64,000 nucleotides of DNA from an uncultured Planctomycetota bacterium (lineage in GTDB: Bacteria > Planctomycetota > Planctomycetia > Isosphaerales > Isosphaeraceae), in contig CAWJTV010000036.1 of the NCBI GenBank assembly GCA_963845755.1, forward strand, positions 288,001 to 352,000, written 5' to 3'. The notes under the pieces are model-generated. The model did not search any database and had not been told where the DNA came from. It saw only the letters and a program-made list of their open reading frames with translations. Positions 24,645 through 42,600 of this stretch are shown one piece after another. The position numbers and the translations under genes are program-made. Position 1 is the first letter of the stretch. Each line of letters begins with the position of its first letter.

Positions 24645-24846
24645 TGCGGGTCATGGCGGGGTAGGGCCGATCTTGTGCAAATTCGTCCCGTATTCTTTCG
24701 CGCCTCATTCTGTTGGTGGCATCAGCCTATTTCCTTTCGCGAGGACGCATGCTAGCATGGAGTCTGTGGGCGTGACCCGATTTGCGGGGCCGGTGGGCCA
24801 TGCAGGGAATCAAATCTTTAGAGGACGAAGTGACAGGAGCGCTCGC

Positions 24847-26825
24847 ATGGGGATCCGCTTGAGGAAGGCTCGCGCGAATGCCGGCGACAGCGGTACCGGT
24901 GGCGGTTCGCGGAAGCGATGCCGCAGAGTCCGGCAGCCCGTCCCGGAAGTTCTCGAAGACCGCCGGTTGTTGACGGCGTCTCTCCAGCCGATCTCCAATC
25001 TGAGCGTCCCGGCGCAGCAGGGTTACACCTTGCCGCTCGACGGCAGCGGCACGACCGATGACCAGACCTTCACCGTGACCATGGACTCGGGCAACCCGGA
25101 TATCACCGCGAGCATCCCCCAACAGAACTTCTGGACGATCGATGTCCAGTACACCGACCCCTCCAACCAGAACAACGACTTCACCGGGCCGCTCACCTTC
25201 CAGCTCTTCCAGACCCTGACGCCCAACACGGTCAGTGAGATCGAGAAGTTCACCACCGACGGATTCTACAGTGCTGCCGGTGATCCGAATAATGGTAATA
25301 AGAACGGGATCTCGATTCCCCGGATCGCGCCGGGCTTCGACGGTTTGACGGATTACATCATCCAGGGCGGAGCCATCAGTTCCACCAACACCGGCGGCCA
25401 GAGCGGGGAGCCGGGCACGCCGTTCCAGAACGAGAATGTCCAGCAGTTGGCCTTCACCGGCACCGACCAGTTGGCGATGGCCAACGCGGGGAATACCGAC
25501 AGCAACGACACCCAGTGGTTCATCACGACCGGCTCGCCCAACAGCGGGCTGGGGTACGGTTACACCATCTTCGGCCAGTTGGTGCCGAATCCCACGAACG
25601 AAACTCCGGCTCAGACCCTGCTGGCCAAACTCACCACGCTCAATCCCAACGGCTTCAATACCAATGTTCCAACGCCAACTCCTGTACCCACTTTCACGGC
25701 ATCGACGTCCTCGGCGAATCCCAGCGGGGTGTTGATCATCGACACCTCGCAGGCCCGTCCGGGCGACTCCGCCACGTTCACCGTGACCGCCCACGATGGC
25801 ACCTCCACCGTCAGCCGGACGTTCACCGTGACCGTCGGCGCCTACGGCGGCCCGACCGACCCGCCCATCCCTTTCAAGCCCCTCGCCAGTCCGGTCACCG
25901 CGTCCGTGGCCGAAGGCAAGTCGACGACGGTCACTCTGGTCGGCCAGGATGGTTATCCGGATCCCACCTACACCGGGTGGACGCTCAGCTATTCCCTGGT
26001 GTCGCAGCCCAGCGACGGCACGATCAGCGACTTCAATGCGTCGGCCGGCACGTTCGTCTACACGCCCAAGCCGGGTTTCACGGGTACCGATCCATTCCAG
26101 TACCAGGTCCAGGAGTCGTACGGACCGTCCTTAACGACCGAGAGCATGGCGACGAACGTGACGCTCACCGTCACACCGACCCCAACGCCCACACCGACTC
26201 CGACACCGACTCCAACGCCCACACGACTCCGACACCGACTCCAACGCCCACACCGACTCCGACACCGACTCCAACGCCCACACCGACTCCAACGCCCACG
26301 CCGACTCCGCTCGTGACGGTTACGGGGATCGCGTTGAAGACGAACAAGAAGCACCAGGTGTCCGAGGTTTTCGTGACATTCAGCGGGCCGGTAAACGTGA
26401 CCGAGGCGGATAACACGGCGACCTATCGCCTGGCCACGCCGGGGAAGCATGGGTCCTATACCGCCAGGAACGCCGGGATCATCAAGCTGAAGTCGGCGAC
26501 CTATGACCCGACGGACGATCAGGTCACGCTCGTGCCGAAGAAACCCTTTGTTATCAGCAAGAAGGTCCAGCTCGAGGTCATCGGTACTCCACCGTCGGGC
26601 TTGCAAGACGGCGCGGGGCGATACATCGACGGCGCGAACAACGGCCAGGCCGGCGGGAACGCCGTCGCGATCCTCTCGAAGGGTGGGGTAAGCATCGACG
26701 CAATGACTCTGGCAAACCCTTCCGCGGGACCGAACACCGCGACGAACGAGATCGACGTCCTGCTCGCCCAATCGGAACTGGACCGTCTCGTTCATTCCCG
26801 GTCGGCGAAGAAACATCCGGGTTGA
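24847..26825 (+). CDS. Extracellular cyclophilin-like protein with Ig-like domain and Pro-Thr linker (1-nt deletion in the PT repeat near 26224)
   Basis: EVLEDRRLLT; IIQGG, LAMANAG, TQWFIT and YTIFGQL; FVYTPKPGFTGTDPFQY; (TP)n. The C-terminal domain is in the frame ending at 26825. Confidence 0.85.
26172..26310 (+). repeat. Coding tandem repeat encoding (Thr-Pro)n
   Basis: Repeating acaccgactcc/aacgccc units. Confidence 0.9.
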
Positions 26826-28464: not shown

Positions 28465-28624
28465 TCAGAATTGATCGACCCACCCGTTCCGGTCGATGCG
28501 AACCCGCTTGAGACTTGAAAGATCGTCAGCACTGCGAGCAAGATAGGGGAATTCTCAGCCCGAGGATCGATCTCTCTTTGCCCTCCCCGGAAGGCGCCGC
28601 GTTCGACGGGGGGCGGTCTGAATC

Positions 28625-31797
<3,173 letters not shown>

Positions 31798-31876: not shown

Positions 31877-34013
31877 TCAGTCGATCGCGTATCGGTGTCT
31901 CAGGCCGAGGACCATCGCACCGTATCGATCGAGGGCTTCCTCCGGGGCGTCGTCCTCGATCGCCCGGACACAACCCTGCACGACCTCGAAGAGCCCGTCG
32001 AAGATCCTCTGGGCATCGTCGCGACCGGAGATCGCCGCGACGATCCTGGGAGCGACGCGGTAGTAGTCCCGGATCAGGAGGAGTCCGCCCGGTTGCGCTC
32101 GGACATACTCATCCCGAAACCGTCGCAGCGTGGTCAGTTCGTGGCAGTCATCCGGAAGACCCCGGGCAACCGTGCAGGCCGTGGTGATGAAGCAATCGAC
32201 CTTTTCTTGGGGCTGGGTCGGCGTCTGCTTCTGCGTTTGGGGCGCGGATGTCTTCTCGTCCTTTTTTTGGGGCTGGGTCGGCGTCTGCGTCTGGGGCGCG
32301 GATGTCTTCTTCTTAAAGGCGAAGGACGGGGCCTCGGTCAAGACCGACGCCTTCTCCAGCAGTTGAGACATCTCCTGTTGTTTCGCCTTGTAATTACCAA
32401 GAATCCTGTCCACATCGAGCTGTTGCTTGATCTGATCGGCGTTGAGCGCCAGCGATTCCTCGAAGTTGAAAATCCGCGGATCCTGATCCTTGAGCAGGTC
32501 AACCGCATAGGTTTTTATGTCCGCTTCGTAGGACTTCTTGAACGCCTCCACCTCCTGGGCATTGAGGATACCACTGCCCTTCAGGATTTCGACCAGCAGA
32601 TTGTAGGCCTCGTTCTGACCGAAGACCAAACGGGCGTGATCATGAACGGCGCTTACCCCCCCATGAATTCCCAAATGGAAGTGTTGGTCTTCAATATATC
32701 GTGAGACCTCGCTCAAAACGCCGCCGCTTGCGATTTTGCGGAGGCCGACGATGAACGCGGGCATTTGCATCGCATGGATCGCCCATTCGTGTGCCATGAC
32801 CTGGAGGGGATGCATTTTGGCATCAAGAGAAGCCATCGACGCGTTGATGCTGATCTTGATCGTCATCGTCTCATTGGAAAGCGATCTCAACGCATTCCCG
32901 CCACGCTCCTTCACGTACCCCCTGATGTCGGATATCGTCGATATGTCCTGTCCTTCGATCATCAACTGTGTCGTACCGAGGGAACCCTGCTGGAGATCGA
33001 AAACCAGGTCGGTCCGGTTGCCTTCGTTTTCGACAAAATCGATGAGATTGCGAAGTTGCGAACTTGTCTTAATGGCCGCCAACAACTTCTCGTAGTGGGC
33101 CATCATGTCCCCGCTTTTTGAGAACGCGCCCGATGGCCCGAGGAATTTGGCCTGGAGGATGCGCACCCGGCCCTGTCCTTGGAGGAAGGACCTCCGTTGA
33201 GGTCCGGGCAGTGAACCTGCTGCTGGAGCCGGGCGGCTGGGGACACGGGCCGGGAGGATGGCCTTGGTGACGGGATGGGTAGGAGGCACGGCGACGCTGC
33301 GCAGTCTGGGCAAGGTTCGTCGCGGGGAAGATCGGCCCTTTCGTAGTCCGGCCGGCGGCAATGGGCGCGGCGAGCTTCGCCTGAACGATCGCGGGCATCG
33401 ATGCCGCTTGCAATCCCATGCGTTCGGCTTCCGCCTCGAGTGCTGCGTCTTGCACCACCGCGAGTCCCGCGCCGAACGGATTTCGGACCCGGCCAGCCCG
33501 CTGTTGCAGGACGTGGGCCAGCTCGTGTCCCAGGAGTCTCTGGCCCTGGGCGATGGTGGGGTTATAGTGTCCCGGCCCGAAATAGAGGTCGGCTCCGTGC
33601 GTGAAGGCCAGAGCCCCGATCGCCGGCACCTCGTGCCCGACGTGCACGCGGACGTCGGCGAAGTCCGCGCCGAAGAAGGCTTCCATCTTCCGCTGCACGG
33701 CCTCGGGCAGGCGTTGCCCGGTGCCGCGGGGCCTCAAGGCGAACCCCGGTGGCAGCGGGAACGCACCCTGGCTCGATGGCGGAACGGTACTCCGAGGCAG
33801 GATCGGCCCGGATGTCGAGGCGGGGCGGATCGGCGTCAAACTTCCGGGAGCCGCCGGCCGGGCCCGACTCGGGGCTGGGGCCGCCGGTCGCGTGACGGAC
33901 GCGGAGGCAGGACCGGGGAGCCGGGGCTTGCCTCCGACGAAGGAGCCCTGGATCACCCCGGGACGAACGCCAAGGGTGGGGGGCAGGGTCGGGTGTCGCG
34001 TGGGAGGGTTCAT
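31877..34013 (-). CDS. DUF4157 protein C: Pro-rich N-terminus, DUF4157, HExxxH domain, CFI-box C-terminal domain (frameshift near 33355)
   Basis: FGADFADVRVH...GALAFTHG...LLGHELAHVLQQ; then VMAHEWAIHA; then CFITTAC...LRRFRD...YYRVAP. Confidence 0.85.
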
Positions 34014-34076
34014 CGGTTCACACTCGGTCCGGGACGGTTCGGCTCTAAACGCGATGCGATCGATCCGGTCGCAGAC

Positions 34077-36164
34077 TCACGCCCATCGGTTGAATTCCTC
34101 GGTCAGGAGATCCCAGAATCGCGAGCCCTGATTCAACTTCTGGGCGACCGCCACCCTTGTTGGCTGTACGCACGGCTTGTTGAGATACCATAACACGGCC
34201 ACATAGAGCCTCGGATGATCATTGAGAACGGTGTTCAGGACGGTGATCGATGCGAGGGTCTCGGGGCTCTGTTTGAACTTGAAGGAATCCTCATCGCGCC
34301 GGAGGGCGGACTGGACGTACGTTTTCAGGGTCTGATTCCCCTTGCCGAGAGCGGGCGGGATCACGCCATACATCCCGTTGCCTAGGTCATAAAGGATTCC
34401 CGCGGCCACCTTGCGTTGAGACTCTTCCTCGCGCTTCGCCTTGTAGAGGGGGATCGCCTGGGCAGCCTCCTTGTTCGCGATGAAAGTCTGGTAGCCGGCC
34501 AGCCCGAGGTCGTCCTTCATCCGGTCGATGAGGGGCGTCGGGTCGCTGAAATAGAGGGGACCGTATCCCGCCTCCCCATTCATGTTGTAGAGGGTGAGTA
34601 GTTTGTTAACAACCTGGCGTTCCAAATTATAGTAGTCGTCGCTGAGGGGGATGCCGGCTTCGGAGCAGACCGACCTCGCGATGGTTTCCGTCAGGCCCTC
34701 GTTGAAGATAGGACCCAGACTCGCCGCCAGGCCCGGGACGGAGAGCATGTGGACCAGTTCATGAACGGCGATATGCAGATCGGCCGCGCCCTGGCGGAGG
34801 TGGATCCGGCCCCCGTGCTCGAACGCGATGGTCTGATCGATGCGCCGGGCATGCTGGATCTGGAACTCCCACCCTTTGGACCCGCCGAGAAACTGCAGAC
34901 TCGAGGGGTCGTACTTCGGATTCACGGAGAGCTGCGAGCGGAGATGGGCGTCCCTGAAGCCCGCGTCGCCGAGGAAGGTGAGTGCGGCCTTGATGTCCTC
35001 GAGGCTCAGTTTGCGTTTGGCGTATTTCGCGAGGAACGTCGAATTCGAGAGGGTCTTATGCAGTCCCGTCGCCACCTCATCCTCGTAGCTTGGACTGTGG
35101 CCTTTCGCAGCTAACCCGTGCTTATCGAAGAGTTTGAGGACTTCACGTAGGGTGCGCACATCGGGGATGGGACGAAGGACCAGAAACTCGGCCAGGGCAA
35201 GCGTATCGTCCGGTCCGGGACCAACTCCGGGAGAGCGTTGGTCCAACCACAGCTTCATGACCTCGACCTCATCGGGTTTCAATTGATCCAACGCCTCTTT
35301 CATCGTGATGCGCTGGACGACGCCGTTCCGAGCCGTCGGACGCCGCGCGGGGCCGACGCTCGGGACCAGGGGGCCGGCGAGTGCCGGGTTGGTCGCCGGG
35401 CCACTCCGCGCCTGAGCTACCGAAGGGCGGGACGCGGCGGGCTGGATCGCCCGGTGGCCGGGGAGCTGAGCGGATGGAATTCCCGGACGCGTCGCCGGAG
35501 TGGCCCCGTGCAACTTGGCCTGGATGCCCGGGGAGACCGGCGTCGGGGCGAGGATCGCGACGGCGCGGAGGCCCAGCCGTTCCGCCTCGGACTCGAGCGC
35601 CCGGTCCTGGACCACCACCAGGCCGGAGCCGAAGGGGTTTCGGACTCGGCCGGCCCGCTGTTGCAGGACGTGCGCCAGCTCGTGGCCCAGGAGTCTCCGG
35701 CCCTGGGCCGTATCGGGATTGTAGTGTCCCGGCGCGAAGTAGAGGTCCGCGCCGTGCGCGAACGCCAGGGCGCCGATCGAGGTGGCTTCCGGCCCGACGT
35801 GAACGCGAACGTCGGAGAAGTCGGCCCCGAGCGCCGCCTTCAGCTTGCCCTGGATCAACCCCGGCAACGGTCGACCCATGGCCCGAGCCTTGAGTGGAAA
35901 CGTGGGTGGCAGGGGAAAAACGCCGTCGGTGTGGGCCTGGGCGGCGACAGGGCGAGAGGCCCGCGGCAGGATCGGCCCGGACCGAGGCGGCACGGGGCCG
36001 GGTCGAGACGGAGCCTGTGCCGCAGCCGCGATCGGCAGGCCCGGGCTCGGCACGGGGGCCTGCCCGGAGAATCGGGGCTTGTGGTCCAGGAAAGAGCCCT
36101 GGATCACGCCCGAGCGGCCGGACGCGCCGGAGACCAGGATCGGACGATGGGAGGAGGGATGCAT
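34077..36164 (-). CDS. DUF4157 protein B with C-terminal zincin-like domain (intact)
   Basis: DUF4157 core, then GVVQR, then AVHELVH...FNEGLTE. Start set at ATG 36164. Confidence 0.88.
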   Translation of the reverse strand: MHPSSHRPILVSGASGRSGVIQGSFLDHKPRFSGQAPVPSPGLPIAAAAQAPSRPGPVPPRSGPILPRASRPVAAQAHTDGVFPLPPTFPLKARAMGRPLPGLIQGKLKAALGADFSDVRVHVGPEATSIGALAFAHGADLYFAPGHYNPDTAQGRRLLGHELAHVLQQRAGRVRNPFGSGLVVVQDRALESEAERLGLRAVAILAPTPVSPGIQAKLHGATPATRPGIPSAQLPGHRAIQPAASRPSVAQARSGPATNPALAGPLVPSVGPARRPTARNGVVQRITMKEALDQLKPDEVEVMKLWLDQRSPGVGPGPDDTLALAEFLVLRPIPDVRTLREVLKLFDKHGLAAKGHSPSYEDEVATGLHKTLSNSTFLAKYAKRKLSLEDIKAALTFLGDAGFRDAHLRSQLSVNPKYDPSSLQFLGGSKGWEFQIQHARRIDQTIAFEHGGRIHLRQGAADLHIAVHELVHMLSVPGLAASLGPIFNEGLTETIARSVCSEAGIPLSDDYYNLERQVVNKLLTLYNMNGEAGYGPLYFSDPTPLIDRMKDDLGLAGYQTFIANKEAAQAIPLYKAKREEESQRKVAAGILYDLGNGMYGVIPPALGKGNQTLKTYVQSALRRDEDSFKFKQSPETLASITVLNTVLNDHPRLYVAVLWYLNKPCVQPTRVAVAQKLNQGSRFWDLLTEEFNRWA

Positions 36165-36210
36165 CGGATGGCCTCGGCCTCTACGATCGGAGGAAAACCT
36201 TGAGCCAGTG

Positions 36211-38347
36211 TCAGAGCTTCTCAGGTGGGATGCAGACCGGGCCGCCCAGGTCACCGACATTGACGTAAGAGAAGGTACTGGAAGACGTCGAGGTCAGGCT
36301 CGTCGAGGAGTTCGAGGAGGATTTCTTGGTCTTGCCGGCTCGGAAGTCTTCGATCGCATCCATCAACCCTGGACGCGCATTCAGGAAAGAAAAGAAGCCT
36401 TGATAAAAAGTCATCTCATCAAAACCCTGACTCTTCAGGTACTCGATGAGCGTTTGAACTTCCTGCCTCTCCCGCGGATAACACGGCCTCTTGCACGTCA
36501 TCCCGGCTTCCTGCATGATGATCAACGTGAGATGTTCGGTGAGGCCCTCGTTCAGATCGCTGCCCAGAGTCTTCTTCGTCATGTGGTTGGAGAGACTGTG
36601 CAGGAACTCGTGGATCGGAACGTGCAAGTCGTCGGTCGTGCCGCTGCCGAGACGGAGGTAGAACGTGTCTCCGACCCGCGCACCGAAGGAAAAGTCCATA
36701 TTCAGCAACTGTGATTGGACCGTAAGTTCACGCTGTTTGGCCTCGACCAGGAGGGCCGCCTCGATATCACGGGCTTCGGCGATCTGGATCGCGTTCGAGA
36801 CCATCTTCTTGAGGGATTCGAGACCCCCTTGTAACTGCGGGCCCGCGGCCTTGAGCAAGGTCTGGGATTTCAGGAGGGCCGGCGGGACCTCGCTCGCGTA
36901 AAAATCCCTGAGGAACTCCTTCGCATGAGGGATCGGCTTGGAAAACATGCTTCCGAACGTAGGGCCATTATCCTTCCAAATCTTATTGACGATGAACTTG
37001 GAGTTCTGCTCATGGAGTGCATATTGCTCGACGGAGTCTCGCAGTCTCGCCATTTCGAAGGGCCGGATGATCTCGTCTAACGGCAGGTTTGTCACCGCCA
37101 TTTTTTGTTCGATCCAGACCTTGAACTTCCGCTCGAAAGCCGAATCCTTCTCCAGCTCAAGCATGAGCTCCTCGATCGGCACGCACTGGACGACTGCGGG
37201 ATGGCTCCGCTTGGCCGCGTTTGGTGCGGCGCCAGGAGTCACCTTACGGGGGAGGATGGGGGAGGCGTGCAAGGCTTCCCGGCTGCGCAGGATGCTCGGC
37301 TTGATCGGGAGGATCGGTCGGGGCATCTGCCGGACCGGGGTGGGGATGGGACCTGGAGGACGTGTCGCACCGTGCGCCGGGGTTGGGCCCGGGAGAATCG
37401 CGCCCCGTTTCGGCTGGACCGACCCGATCGCGGCATCCGGGCGGCGGGCGGGTGAGATCGGACGGGCGACAGTGGGCAGGATCGGGGGACGGGCGGCCGG
37501 CGTCGAGGCGGATGGCGCAGGGTGCTGGGCCGTCGCGAGTCCGCGGGGAGGAGGCGCCCGGTCCGGGAGGCATCATCTTGGCCTGGACCGGCGGCACGAA
37601 CGTCGCGGCCCGTTGCCCCATCCGCTCCGCCTCGGCCTCCAGCGCCTGATCCTGGACCACGGCAAGTCCCGAGCCGAAGGCGTTGCGCACCCGGCCGGCT
37701 TGCTGCTGCAAGACGTGCGTCAACTCGTGCCCCAGCAGTCGCTGTCCCTCCGAGGTCGTGGGACGGTATTGCCCCGGGGCGAAGTAGAGGTCCGAACCGT
37801 GAGTAAACGCCAGGGCGCCGATCGACGGCGCTTCAGGCCCGATGTGGACCATCACGTCGGAGAAGTCGGCCCCGAAGAATGCTTCCATCTTCCGCTGGAC
37901 GGGCTCGGGCAGTCGTTGCCCCGTGCCATGGGGCTTGAGGGCGAACGTGGGCGGCAAGGCGAAGGTATTGCCGGAGAGGCGCTGTACCGCGATCGCTCCG
38001 AGGTGCCTCGCGCCGGTCGCGGGTTGGACGGACTGTGCCAGGGCCGGGCCGGGAAGGATGCCGTGTTGCGGCCGTCCTGGGTTCGGCGGGACCGCTCCGA
38101 AACTCGGGGGATGGATCGGACCGGATGCCCCGCCGAGCCGGGGCTGGGCCGGTTTCTGCTGGAGCGGTGCCGGCGGATGCGGAGACGGGCGGACCGGTGA
38201 GGTTGGAGGGGTCCCAGGCCATCCTCTTGCCGCCGGGGTGCCCGTCTGACGGGCCGCGGGCAACATGGGATCGATTCTGCCGGGAAGTCCGCCTGGGAAG
38301 TAACCTTGGATCACATTTCCACCGGAGAGCCCTACACGCGGAGACAT
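36211..38347 (-). CDS. DUF4157 protein A with C-terminal zincin-like domain (frameshift near 37560)
   Basis: DUF4157 core (LLGHELTHVLQQ), then AVVQC, then IHEFLH...LNEGLTE, and a Ser-rich tail. Confidence 0.85.
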
Positions 38348-38623: not shown

Positions 38624-39277
38624 ATGAACGAGTCATTCGTGGAAGTGGACGAAGAGCCGAGCCTGGGGGCTTTGCGACTTGAGGCAACCCCGATCGTCTG
38701 GCGAGACGCATTGCGCGAGGATCTGGCCCGGACGATCGAGCGTGGGCACGGCCGGTGGTCGCGGGCGTTGGTGGCGATGGCGTGGATTCACCTGGGGAGT
38801 TTCCTCGGCTGCCAGGCGCTCCATGACCCCAGCCTCCAGAGCGACCCTCGCCTGGTCCTCGTGTGGGGTGCGGAGCTGGTCGCCGTGATCGTCGCATTGC
38901 GCGCGATCGTCGGGCCGCGATGGTTCGCGGCGTCACCGGCCGTCGGCGTCGTGACCCGGTTGTGGGCGACCTTCCTGATCCTCTCGTTCAACCTGGTGAT
39001 GCTCAACGCCTTGACCGGCTGGGAATCCCGATGGTACAAGCCGGCCTGGGGGACCTTGAGCACGTTCTTCTTCGCGTCGCTGGCCTGGCTGTTCACGCCC
39101 AAGTTCTTCATCCCAGCCGTCCAGATGTACTTCACCGCGCTCGTGATGGTCCACTTCCAGGACGAGGAAAACCTGGTTTATGGCGTGTCGTGGTGGGTCG
39201 CACTCATGAGTATCGCCGTGACGCTCCGGCGGCAGGAACGTCGATGGGAAAACCGTAGCTCAGGCTTTCCATCCTGA
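38624..39277 (+). CDS. Hypothetical integral membrane protein
   Basis: About 6 hydrophobic segments. Confidence 0.7.
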   Translation: MNESFVEVDEEPSLGALRLEATPIVWRDALREDLARTIERGHGRWSRALVAMAWIHLGSFLGCQALHDPSLQSDPRLVLVWGAELVAVIVALRAIVGPRWFAASPAVGVVTRLWATFLILSFNLVMLNALTGWESRWYKPAWGTLSTFFFASLAWLFTPKFFIPAVQMYFTALVMVHFQDEENLVYGVSWWVALMSIAVTLRRQERRWENRSSGFPS

Positions 39278-39320: not shown

Positions 39321-41336
39321 TCACCGCGCCGGGGCCGGGTCCGTCGTCGGCGCCATCGCGGTCCCGAGGTCCAGGCTGGGCCGTTCGCGCTCTCGGATCG
39401 GCGTCGGGTTCCAGACCGGCAAATCGCAAAGGCCGCCGCCCAGGTAGATGTGCTGCCAGAGCTGGGTCGCGATGACGCAGGTCAAGCTCAGGTCCATGAT
39501 GATCCGTTTGGGAGTGATCGTGGGGAACCGCACCTGGGCGGCGCGCTCGCGCGCGATCCCTTCCGGGTCGAACCAGCCGGTGGCTCTGAGCGACTCGGGG
39601 CTCAGGAGCTGGTCGACCCAGGCCGGGCGGTCCGGGGCGAGGAAGGCTTCGGACCGGCTGGCGCGGAACATCGTCTTGGGGCGGTTGGCGATCCGGGTCG
39701 GGAGCGTCCGCGCGGCCACCTGGCGCAGCAGCCACTTGTCGGTCCGGCCACGCAGCTTGTACTCCGGGGCGATCGAGGCGCAGAAGGCGATCACATCGTC
39801 GTCGAGCAGCGGATACCGCGCCTCGACCGACGAGTTCATGGCGATCCGGTCCCCCTTGGCCACGAGGAGCAGTCCGGCCAGCATGACCTTGTAGCCGACG
39901 TAGAGCGACTGATTCAGCGGAGCCCAGTGCGGGAATCGGTCGTGGATGATGCCCAGGTCGTCGAAGGCCGCATGACCGGCCACGCGGTCCCAGAGTGCAC
40001 CGGAATAGACGAAGGATCGCCCCTGGGCCATGAGGTCGTAGACATCCTGCTGGGCCGTGCGCACGCCCCGGATGCCATGGCGCGGCGGCACGTGCGCCGG
40101 GTTGCCGCGCATCGAGCCGAGCACCAGCCGCCGGAACGCCGGGTTGATGAACCCCAGCGACCAGCGATTGAGCCGCTCGCGGATCGACTGGGTCTTGAAC
40201 CAGGCGTAGCCGGCCAGCGCCTCGTCGGCCCCCTCGCCGGTCAGCACGACCTTGTAGCCCTGACCGTGCACGGCGCGGGCCAGCCGCATCAGGCAGGCGC
40301 AGGAGGAGTCCATCACCGGCCCTTCGGCGGCGCGGATCAGCTCGGGATAGGCCGCGACGATGTCGGCGCGGTTCATCGTCACGGTGGTCAACTGCGAGCC
40401 CAGCGCCGCGGCCGATTCGGTCGCGTGCGACCGCTCGTCGGGGCCGGCGCGGTCCAACCCGATCGTGAACGACGGCACGGCCGAGCCCCGCTGTCGCGAG
40501 CTAAGCCCCAGCACGACCGTCGAATCCAGCCCGCCGCTGATATAGCTGACCACCGGCACGTCGCCCCGCAGCCGGCGCTCGACCGCCTGCCGCATCCGGG
40601 ATTCCAGCTCGTCGATCAGCGGCGTCGGATCGTCCAGCCGGCGCTCCTGGCCCGCGTCGGGGAAATCCAGGTCCCAGTAGAGTTTGCTCTCGACCCGCCC
40701 GTCGCGGACCCGGAGGTAATGGCCCGGCGGGATCGATTGGATCCCTTCGAAGAACGTGCGCGAGGTCCCGGCGCAGAAGGTGTGGAAGAACAGGTCGATG
40801 CCCTTGGGGTCCGGCCGGGCCGCGACCAGGCCCGACGACAACAGGGCCTTGATCTCCGAGCCCCAGAGCAACCAGCCATCGGCCATCGTGTAATACAGCG
40901 GGCAGATCCCCACCCGATCGCGCCCCAGGATCAGCGTGCGCGTGTTCCGGTCCCAGAGCGCGACGGCGAACTGGCCGCGGGCCTTCTCGAAGAACCCCTC
41001 GCCCAGGTCTTCATAGAGGTGGACCCACAGCTCGGTGTCGCACCGGGTCGCCAGCCGATGCCCCCGCGCCGACAGCTCGGCTTGCAGCTCGGGGTATTCG
41101 AAGAGCTCGCCGTTCTGCGTCGCCCAGATGGAACCGTCCTCGTTGCTGATCGGTTGGCGGCCTCCGGCCAGGTTGACGATCGACAGCCGCCGCGCCCCCA
41201 TCGCCACGCCCGGTTCGAGATGGACCTGTTCGTCGTCCGGGCCGCGATGCGCGATCGCGCCCGTCATCGCCAGCAACCGCGCGGCGGAGAACTCGCGATG
41301 GCCGTTCAGATCGATCGCACCCGCGATGCCGCACAT
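39321..41336 (-). CDS. asnB: Asparagine synthase (glutamine-hydrolysing) family amidotransferase
   Basis: MCGIAG, HRGPD, NGE, RDRVGICPLYY, ISGGLDS, VVLTGEGADE and SVEARYP. Confidence 0.93.
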   Translation of the reverse strand: MCGIAGAIDLNGHREFSAARLLAMTGAIAHRGPDDEQVHLEPGVAMGARRLSIVNLAGGRQPISNEDGSIWATQNGELFEYPELQAELSARGHRLATRCDTELWVHLYEDLGEGFFEKARGQFAVALWDRNTRTLILGRDRVGICPLYYTMADGWLLWGSEIKALLSSGLVAARPDPKGIDLFFHTFCAGTSRTFFEGIQSIPPGHYLRVRDGRVESKLYWDLDFPDAGQERRLDDPTPLIDELESRMRQAVERRLRGDVPVVSYISGGLDSTVVLGLSSRQRGSAVPSFTIGLDRAGPDERSHATESAAALGSQLTTVTMNRADIVAAYPELIRAAEGPVMDSSCACLMRLARAVHGQGYKVVLTGEGADEALAGYAWFKTQSIRERLNRWSLGFINPAFRRLVLGSMRGNPAHVPPRHGIRGVRTAQQDVYDLMAQGRSFVYSGALWDRVAGHAAFDDLGIIHDRFPHWAPLNQSLYVGYKVMLAGLLLVAKGDRIAMNSSVEARYPLLDDDVIAFCASIAPEYKLRGRTDKWLLRQVAARTLPTRIANRPKTMFRASRSEAFLAPDRPAWVDQLLSPESLRATGWFDPEGIARERAAQVRFPTITPKRIIMDLSLTCVIATQLWQHIYLGGGLCDLPVWNPTPIRERERPSLDLGTAMAPTTDPAPAR

Positions 41337-41569
41337 CTCGAAACCCTTCTCACGAAACCTGTTCGGCCGATCCGTTCCCCGGGACGCCCGCCGATCCGCC
41401 GGCCGGCGGGATCGATCGGGACACGTTGTACTATAACATTCGCAGTCAACCCGGGACGAGCCGGCCGACTTCCGAGCGTCCCATCGCACTCTGGTTCGAT
41501 CGTTTCACTCGTTGTATCTTGAGACGAACGTGTGGATCGTCTCGACGCATTCTTCTCGGAGCCGTGTCG

Positions 41570-42600
41570 ATGGCCAAGCCCTTCGAGATCGAGACCGAGG
41601 ACTACGAGTTATTGATCTCGCCGTCGGCCGGAGAGACCAACCTGCCCAAGCCGGCCTCGACGAACGTTCATGCCGACGTCAGTGCGGTCTCGCACACGGG
41701 GAGGGTCCGGTTGCGGAACGAGGACCACTTTCTCGTCTCCCGATTCAGCCGTAAGCACGAGATCCTCCAGACCAACCTGCCCCAGGAGTCCCTCCCCGAA
41801 CAGACCGGCGACGACGGCTATCTGTTCATCGTGGCCGACGGGATGGGCGGAATGGCTGCCGGCGAGGTCGCCAGCCGGCTGGCGATCAGCACGAGCCTAA
41901 AGCTGTTCCATCGCTCGGAGAAATGGGGCTTCAAGGTCAACCATCGCGAGGCGCGGCGAACTGTTCGACCGGATCAATAGCGATCTCCAGGAGATCGACA
42001 AGGCGCTCACCGAGCAGAGCGCGGCCGACCGCCGCCTCCTGGGGATGGGCACCACCTTGACCGCCGCCTACAGCATGGGCGTTCAACCTGTTCATCGTCC
42101 ACCTCGGCGACTCCCGGGTGTACCTCTATCGCGACGGCACGCTCCGCCAGTTGACCAAGGACCATACCGTCGCCCAGGCCATGGCCGATGCCGGCCACAT
42201 CTCCCACGAGGACGTGCGGCATCACGTCAAGCGCAATGCGCTGACCAACTTCCTCGGCGGCCACAACGGCAAGGTCCGGGCCGAGTTCCGCTGGCTCCGT
42301 CTCGCCGATGGCGACCGCCTGCTGCTCTGCAGCGACGGGCTCAATGAGATGGTCGACGACGCCTCCATCGCCCGGATCGTCGGCCGGCGCGGCTCGGTCC
42401 GCGAGGTGGCACAGGCCCTCCTCACGGAAGCCCTCGACGGCGGCGGTAAAGATAACGTCACCATCATCGTGGCCGGCTACCAGATCTCCAACCCGGAACC
42501 CGCCCAGGAAGCGAACCTCAGCGAGGAGCTGACCAAGCTGGAATCCACCTCCGATACGAACCCTCCGTCGTTAGCCTTCCTGGATGAGACGCGGGACTAG
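41570..42600 (+). CDS. PP2C-family Ser/Thr phosphatase (frameshifts near 41958 and 42085)
   Basis: GRVRLRNED, VADGMGG, MGTTLT, LLLCSDGL and GGKDNVT. Confidence 0.9.

Follow-up and report, generated by a model that had tools for sequence, protein, structure and literature searches.

Three tandem genes that share a DUF4157 domain were found at 31877-38347, on the minus strand, of a 64,000-nucleotide stretch (here called the window; contig CAWJTV010000036.1, positions 288,001 to 352,000) from an uncultured soil Planctomycetota bacterium of the Isosphaeraceae. Based on their sequences and on the gene neighbourhoods of their relatives, the array is likely an orphan set of a distinct DUF4157 subfamily, whose members would be polymorphic cargo effectors of the cell-anchored type VI secretion system (T6SS) rather than cargo of a free-floating extracellular contractile injection system (eCIS). 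Each gene joins a constant chassis, namely a Pro-rich leader, the DUF4157 core (PF13699, eCIS_core; E = 2e-25 to 3e-27) and a second Pro-rich linker, to a variable C-terminal tip. The initial annotation had proposed an orphan polymorphic effector cassette that is loaded in trans by an eCIS; the constant chassis, the variable tips and the lack of immunity genes are retained here, but the eCIS assignment is not, given the neighbourhoods described below.

Gene neighbourhoods of the subfamily

The homologous loci that were compared number 141 (71 from genomes and 70 from metagenomes, some of them redundant, taken from the best 80 matches per scan). A T6SS gene other than clpV is present in 63 of them, and two or more T6SS genes in 48; in loci of at least 12 kb, the latter figure is 34 of 66. 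No eCIS gene was found at any of the 141 loci with queries from one genome, and the same queries detected eCIS genes at all three relatives' loci in which an ordinary DUF4157 gene lies near pvc16.

As a within-genome control, 50 carrier genomes, each represented by one of the 71 genome loci, were searched for pvc16, tssB and the DUF4157 core. tssB was found in 46 of them (one match is weak) and pvc16 in 25. The core scores were bimodal: 116 subfamily matches reach at least 95 bits, whereas ordinary DUF4157 domains reach at most 73 bits. The ordinary set consists of 31 weaker matches among those listed, three split-gene fragments having been dropped; 29 further matches stand outside these counts, and weak duplicate tssB rows were left out. 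Within 20 kb, 51 of the 116 subfamily genes (in 32 genomes) have a tssB neighbour and none has pvc16, whereas the ordinary DUF4157 genes of the same genomes show the reverse (0 of 31 near tssB and 14 of 31 near pvc16). The same holds in the 24 genomes with both markers when the distance is 35 kb: 24 of 62 subfamily genes lie near tssB and 0 near pvc16, against 0 and 15 of 27 for the ordinary genes.

The linkage to T6SS genes spans five phyla (Pseudomonadota, Acidobacteriota, Planctomycetota, Verrucomicrobiota and Myxococcota). The order tssF-tssG-[gene]-clpV-vgrG is frequent and was confirmed with NCBIfam in Niveispirillum and Azospirillum loci, and in a Schlesneria locus tssB-tssC-tssE-tssF-tssG is followed by an array (NCBIfam). 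In a quick TssC tree of 56 rows (three loci with a short match or none were skipped), one branch (SH-aLRT 100) holds 19 of the 23 systems adjacent to a subfamily gene and 7 of the 8 single systems of carriers whose gene lies on another contig, whereas only 1 of 16 other systems falls there, and none of the 9 that come from non-carrier relatives; the kin in this tree are not independent, and the counts carry no p-value. Two of the T6SS clusters (L064:16142-16750 and L078:5907-6527) also contain a MORN-repeat gene after vgrG and before a PAAR-like gene.

The host genome has 13 DUF4157 matches, two of which are halves of one split gene, so that 12 genes remain: the three of the array, four in tandem on contig C20 and five single ones. 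The four tandem genes, all of the subfamily (C20:667353-676631; L037:7354-16632), lie directly upstream of tssA-tssB-tssC in the only tssB-marked T6SS of the genome. This cluster (C20:677682-699022) has two tssC genes and an IglG-like PAAR gene, and a clpV-like gene lies about 55 kb beyond it (C20:754994-757662); altogether the matches on C20 are tssA, tssB, tssC (two), tssE, tssF, tssG, hcp, vgrG, tssK, tssL, tssM, PAAR-like and clpV, several of them frame-split. The tips of the C20 array are GNAT plus IPK-like (weak), peptidase C80-like (weak) and an unnamed domain, and its first gene has almost no tip. The initial annotation had advised a genome-wide search for eCIS genes, and these were indeed found away from the array, at C9:185000-213500 (L035, L036): two sheaths, two gp19 tubes, CIS_tube-LysM, spike, gp25, two baseplate J proteins, tail I, an AAA ATPase and Pvc16, with several genes frame-split. 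None of the 13 DUF4157 matches of the genome is on C9.

Polymorphism of the subfamily

A search with the chassis gave 581 proteins at E <= 1e-30, and the top 120 of them were examined. VIQGxF occurs near the start in 92 of these 120 and the GRVxN extension of the core in 114. The tips of those 114, together with the three from the array, fall into 75 clusters, 58 of them singletons, in agreement with the constant chassis and varied C-termini of the initial annotation. Named tips among the relatives include GNAT (the most frequent of the named extra domains), HNH, deaminases, transglutaminase, peptidase C80-like (weak), F-box, FYVE, VirD5-like and IPK-like (weak); the F-box, FYVE and VirD5-like tips score above the cut-off and the IPK-like ones at or below it. 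Tandem arrays recur, with more than one ORF (open reading frame) in 14 of the 141 loci, and a short-read metagenome contig (L131) carries an intact array of at least six genes, whose gaps of about 100-255 bp are free of ORFs of at least 70 aa. Within its phylum the subfamily is rare (2 of 401 genomes, the host genome included). It is defined by score and motif, and a quick core tree (105 columns, 60 open forks) is not proof of a clade. Four proteins (P0164, P0169, P0170 and P0191) are 2,600-3,000 aa long with three matched chassis stretches each; three DUF4157 domains were confirmed in P0164 and P0169, and P0169 has a lipase-like domain. One Niveispirillum match is on a plasmid.

A hydrophobic-hydrophobic-Gln motif recurs in the disordered leader and linker and is enriched there, but not in the tips: in 116 proteins it occurs 256 times in leaders (62.7 in shuffled sequences), 138 times in linkers (51.5) and 61 times in tips (50.8). 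The motifs that had been suggested as processing sites are therefore real, but they recur through leader and linker, and a single defined cleavage site is unsupported because the motif repeats.

Short forms also exist, as 46 of 169 subfamily ORFs end just after the core (within 40 aa). Stand-alone subfamily proteins of about 170-230 aa are found in Acidobacteria and others (L067, L078, L083, L094, L102, L148, L149 and L183), and they adjoin T6SS genes in several of these loci. Downstream of the stand-alone form there is often a gene that lacks DUF4157 and has a Pro-rich leader (PPxYRP or PPPTKFG). This leader is possibly a second, unnamed cargo marker; the association is weak, with a Pro-rich xQx[KR] leader gene after 8 of 40 stand-alone forms versus 34 of 450 random windows.

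Several observations weigh against T6SS cargo. The array of the window is itself not near a T6SS, and 65 of the 116 subfamily genes, either orphans like those of the window or genes on short contigs, do not lie within 20 kb of tssB. Co-occurrence alone is weak evidence because tssB is common anyway (20 of 40 relatives). In the TssC tree the host T6SS and two other planctomycete systems form a separate branch, one more adjacent system stands elsewhere, and the adjacency label needs nine changes. Most tips have no Pfam match, and the host eCIS locus, being without DUF4157 cargo, could draw on the array genes in trans.

This last point leads to the alternative that the array is orphan cargo of the eCIS, taken up in trans by the particle that C9 encodes, which we regard as improbable. 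The C9 locus does carry sheaths, tubes, baseplate, spike, AAA ATPase and Pvc16 with no DUF4157 gene of its own, and the architecture of disordered N-terminal domain (NTD), DUF4157 and C-terminal domain (CTD) matches the published outline of Cgo1/Cgo2; however, none of the 141 loci and none of the 116 subfamily genes compared lies near eCIS genes, and pvc16 was found in just half of the carrier genomes, although ordinary DUF4157 genes there do adjoin it. A shared pool, in which the T6SS and the eCIS of one cell both read the disordered leader, would suit the 24 of 50 carrier genomes with both markers and the description of eCIS loading signals as low-conservation disordered segments (10.64898/2026.05.27.728243), but it seems very improbable, as even there the two DUF4157 types separate clearly between the machines. 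There is also only a very slight chance that the subfamily consists of T6SS accessory or regulatory proteins, or of secreted scavenging enzymes, and not of toxins. Such roles would agree with the absence of immunity genes, with the frequency of GNAT and with the stand-alone forms among core T6SS genes, whereas extreme tip diversity, tandem amplification and tips of the HNH, deaminase, transglutaminase and peptidase C80-like kinds are characteristic of conflict effectors.

Structure of the three genes

The three genes are co-oriented, and their intergenic gaps measure 46 and 63 bp, as the initial annotation had given them; 79 bp separate the array from the convergent gene downstream. No immunity gene is present, the gaps of 46, 63 and 79 bp being too small for one. 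The VIQG[S/Y]F motif was located in all three genes (at 38314, 36107 and 33956 in genes 1, 2 and 3), as were the junctions between linker and tip (Table 1). The chassis has a GC content of 0.69-0.73 and the tips one of 0.56-0.60, in line with the less GC-rich sequence reported after the junctions. The PF13699 domain lies at the N-terminal side and keeps its catalytic motif, HExxHxxQ with a downstream Glu. The cores had been called nearly identical, which overstates the case: those of the other two genes are 80% and 73% identical to the gene 3 core (116 aa). By hydropathy, no Sec/Tat-type hydrophobic signal or membrane segment was detected (the maximum 19-residue mean is 1.37, and at most 0.8 near the N-termini), and a promoter and terminator scan gave results near chance.

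Table 1. Features of the DUF4157 array (positions within the window)
Feature	Position	Strand	Content
Gene 1, N-terminal piece	37244..38347	-	VIQGYF, Pro-rich leader, DUF4157 37694-37912, RVRN-x-FGxG-VVQD-EAE extension; frame lost after VQAK
Gene 1, frame break (approximate zone)	37480..37580	-	GCGC words at 37515 and 37554
Gene 1, C-terminal piece	36211..37326	-	Linker, VVQC 37194, gluzincin-like tip, HEFLH 36612, EGLTE 16 residues past motif
Gene 2, intact, 695 aa	34077..36164	-	Leader, DUF4157 35649-35870, linker, VVQR 35321, predicted gluzincin tip, HELVH 34763
Gene 3, N-terminal piece	33069..34013	-	VIQGSF, leader, DUF4157 33492-33710
Gene 3, frame break (approximate zone)	33280..33340	-	GCGC at 33299
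Gene 3, C-terminal piece	31877..33361	-	ILQAK 33160, orphan domain with HExxxH 32791, Thr/Gln/Pro/Lys spacer
CFI-box-CTERM domain, end of gene 3	31880..32194	-	NF041770, E = 2e-12, 46.6 bits against a cut-off of 40

Only the middle gene is a single ORF (36164-34077), whereas genes 1 and 3 each consist of two overlapping ORFs in different frames (38452-37244 and 37326-36211; 34013-33069 and 33361-31877), with the frame change in the Pro-rich linker after the core. The description of three genes of about 700 aa is thus directly true of gene 2 alone. Judging from sequence comparisons, genes 1 and 3 were probably broken by errors of assembly, in which case each of the three would be an intact gene of about 700 aa. 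In a control for the rate of such breaks, 140 ORFs, drawn from 400 kb of sequence of a relative (99% complete), were mapped on the genome; 62 passed an identity and coverage filter, and 21 of these are frame-split, with 26 frame changes in total (0.31 per kb). At this rate a 2.1-kb gene has about an even chance of being split, and so two split genes out of three are unremarkable. GCGC is present in 13 of the 26 control break zones, where 3.3 would be expected, and in both zones of the array. Linker words of the family occur in the tip frame eight times in gene 1 and three times in gene 3, against none in either of the other frames. A second assembly (a 23,257-bp contig) has gene 2 broken (P0161), which is whole here. 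Programmed frameshifting in genes 1 and 3 was set aside given the genome-wide error rate. Elsewhere in the window, a PSCyt1/PSCyt2/PSD1 gene also looks frame-split, as do, by eye, a cyclophilin-like surface protein and a PP2C-like phosphatase (together the set 24673-26825, 28515-31797 and 41426-42600), which fits the error rate of the assembly.

One finding counts against assembly error: the gene 3 tip is again a separate ORF in the second assembly (P0121), which would fit a systematic error or a true break. Contigs from the one DNA sequencing run listed (share 0.09; no RNA run was listed) match parts of the array but span neither break, and they show no indel in their sparse cover of the T6SS locus; both results are uninformative. 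If genes 1 and 3 were truly broken, as decayed reservoir cassettes or as split pairs of leader and cargo, gene 2 alone would be active. Each tip ORF has a possible start of its own (37326 and about 33166), stand-alone DUF4157 genes exist in nature, and the separate gene 3 tip in both assemblies would be explained. This alternative nevertheless appears improbable, as the break rate predicts that about half of all 2.1-kb genes are split, GCGC, around which the breaks of this assembly cluster, is in both zones, the family linker words run on in the tip frame upstream of the possible starts, and most natural short forms stop within about 20 aa of the core, unlike the pieces of the array.

Tips 1 and 2 are homologous to each other (36% over 90 aa, E = 8e-10) and both have HExxH-x16-E; in their family, HExxH-x14-16-E was recognized in all nine members examined. 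A structure model of tip 2, built on five sequences (predicted local distance difference test, pLDDT, 70), matched M1/M4 gluzincins best (Z 6.5-8.0, root mean square deviation 4-5 Å over about 150-170 residues), and nearly all matches at Z >= 5 were of the zincin fold. Tips 1 and 2 are thus predicted zinc proteases of the gluzincin fold. Against this prediction stand the middling Z-scores, with a best value of 8.0, and a Foldseek search with the same model that returned nothing at E <= 0.001. Neither tip has a Pfam match, and a profile search for zincin tips was swamped by chassis columns, with only six tip-side matches among the first 150, of which this organism accounts for two. Gene 2 carries a further C-terminal domain of about 110 aa, which together with the tip 2 gluzincin is also found behind Pro-rich leaders that end in VVQR and lack DUF4157 (P0171, P0174).

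Tip 3 is unrelated to the other two and has an HExxxH motif (HEWAIH) and a terminal CFI-box-CTERM domain. The initial annotation had seen a second metalloprotease-like motif in all three tips and a divergence after every junction. The motif holds as HExxH in tips 1 and 2, but that of tip 3 is HExxxH, the CFI-box-CTERM end had been missed, and tips 1 and 2 belong to one family. A fold search, which had also been suggested, gave a gluzincin-like result for tip 2; for tip 3 the model was unusable (pLDDT 44) and the search uninformative. No homologue of tip 3 outside this organism was found among 2,833 candidates, and no PDB or PHROGs match; a weak Pfam match to vRNAP_plug fell below the cut-off and was not accepted. 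Its CFI-box-CTERM domain, fused to a putative effector tip, is the only copy found in the genome, and a literature search on the term CFI-box found no paper.

Upstream, the array is flanked by a divergent membrane protein gene without Pfam match (38624-39277, plus strand) and a gene for an asparagine synthase-like amidotransferase (39321-41489, minus strand). No mobility genes were noticed beside it.

Proposed role and known systems

In the proposed mechanism, the disordered Pro-rich leader would act as an export signal, read in trans by the single T6SS on C20. DUF4157 would be an accessory, either a chaperone (PMC11297309) or a releasing peptidase as proposed by Zhang et al. (PMC3482391), and may be dispensable. 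In the AlgoCIS particle the disordered NTD is reported to be needed for loading and DUF4157 to be dispensable (10.64898/2026.05.27.728243); the presence of tip 2 on leaders without DUF4157, and the short forms, are consistent with such NTD loading, in which DUF4157 is not required. Tips 1 and 2, as predicted zinc proteases, would act in the target cell, for which we lean slightly towards a eukaryote such as a soil protist or fungus. A protist or fungal target is favoured because immunity genes are missing and the relatives have a few eukaryote-type tips (F-box, FYVE and IPK-like), and an anti-amoeba T6SS is described in Xanthomonas citri (PMC6653060). The support is tempered by two points: a clearly eukaryote-type domain or a cut-off-level IPK-like match was found in only 4 of 151 relatives scanned; and immunity genes are also frequently absent for eCIS toxins lethal to E. 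coli (PMC8213781), which is why our preference for a eukaryotic target is no stronger. A further point against the overall proposal is that toxicity of Cgo1 is reported to be independent of its metalloprotease motifs (PMC8894135).

A broader scenario, which is rather unlikely, is that a T6SS lineage adopted the arming scheme of the eCIS: large immunity-less effectors would be recognised through a disordered Pro/Gln leader and a DUF4157 adaptor, fused or stand-alone by tssG, vgrG and clpV, and be threaded unfolded into the Hcp tube for delivery into eukaryotic predators. In that case the leader-DUF4157 chassis would provide a new marker of T6SS effectors, giving access to dozens of unnamed enzyme families. 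The Pfam name of the domain is 'eCIS core', and the presence of DUF4157 is taken as nearly sufficient to call an eCIS toxin (PMC11297309); such calls would be corrected by a subfamily that follows a T6SS lineage instead. This subfamily, whose tips form at least 75 mostly unnamed clusters, would in addition allow T6SS cargo to be recognised by sequence in little-studied soil phyla, and cultured carriers (Azospirillum, Niveispirillum, Pseudoduganella and Sorangium) make the role of DUF4157 and the loading of immunity-less cargo of about 700 aa testable.

General statements exist that DUF4157 occurs in eCIS and T6SS effectors, and one entry in a Lysobacter table places it beside orphan VgrGs. In literature searches we found no account of a family with an N-terminal DUF4157 chassis that is dedicated to a T6SS lineage, although supplementary tables may mention one. 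FIX and MIX, domains other than DUF4157, are N-terminal markers of polymorphic T6SS cargo with many C-termini, encoded both inside clusters and by orphan genes; antibacterial effectors of these types are known to have immunity genes. Tip 2 shares HExxH and the downstream Glu helix with the gluzincins of MEROPS M1/M4 (leukotriene A4 hydrolase, 5fwq; thermolysin, 5a3y), but at 10-17% identity and Z of only 6-8.

The architecture and the missing immunity genes are already known, having been described in 2012 for the PVC-metallopeptidase (DUF4157) polymorphic toxins (Zhang et al. 2012, PMC3482391). As outlined there, these have a constant N-terminal HExxHxxQ-E peptidase and variable C-termini, metallopeptidases included, with several per genome and often no immunity gene; they are, however, PVC/eCIS cargo by definition, whereas the subfamily of the array is linked with TssB/TssC/ClpV/VgrG clusters, and no such link to eCIS genes was seen. 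Cgo1 is a close analogue. In the accounts of AlgoCIS (PMC8894135; 10.64898/2026.05.27.728243), Cgo1 and Cgo2 share the disordered NTD, DUF4157, the variable CTD and an adjacent gene pair with the array, and the Cgo1 CTD is a predicted metalloprotease like tips 1 and 2 (PMC8894135). They differ in being encoded in an eCIS cluster and shown in the tube lumen, and the leaders were compared by architecture. The VgrG2b C-terminal metallopeptidase family, often annotated as DUF4157 (Wood et al. 2019, PMC6899460), likewise places a DUF4157-type domain in T6SS loci. In that family, as presented, the metallopeptidase is itself the antibacterial toxin, fused to VgrG or PAAR or as cargo (PMC6899460), whereas in the array DUF4157 is a constant N-terminal chassis that precedes unrelated tips, with no immunity gene.

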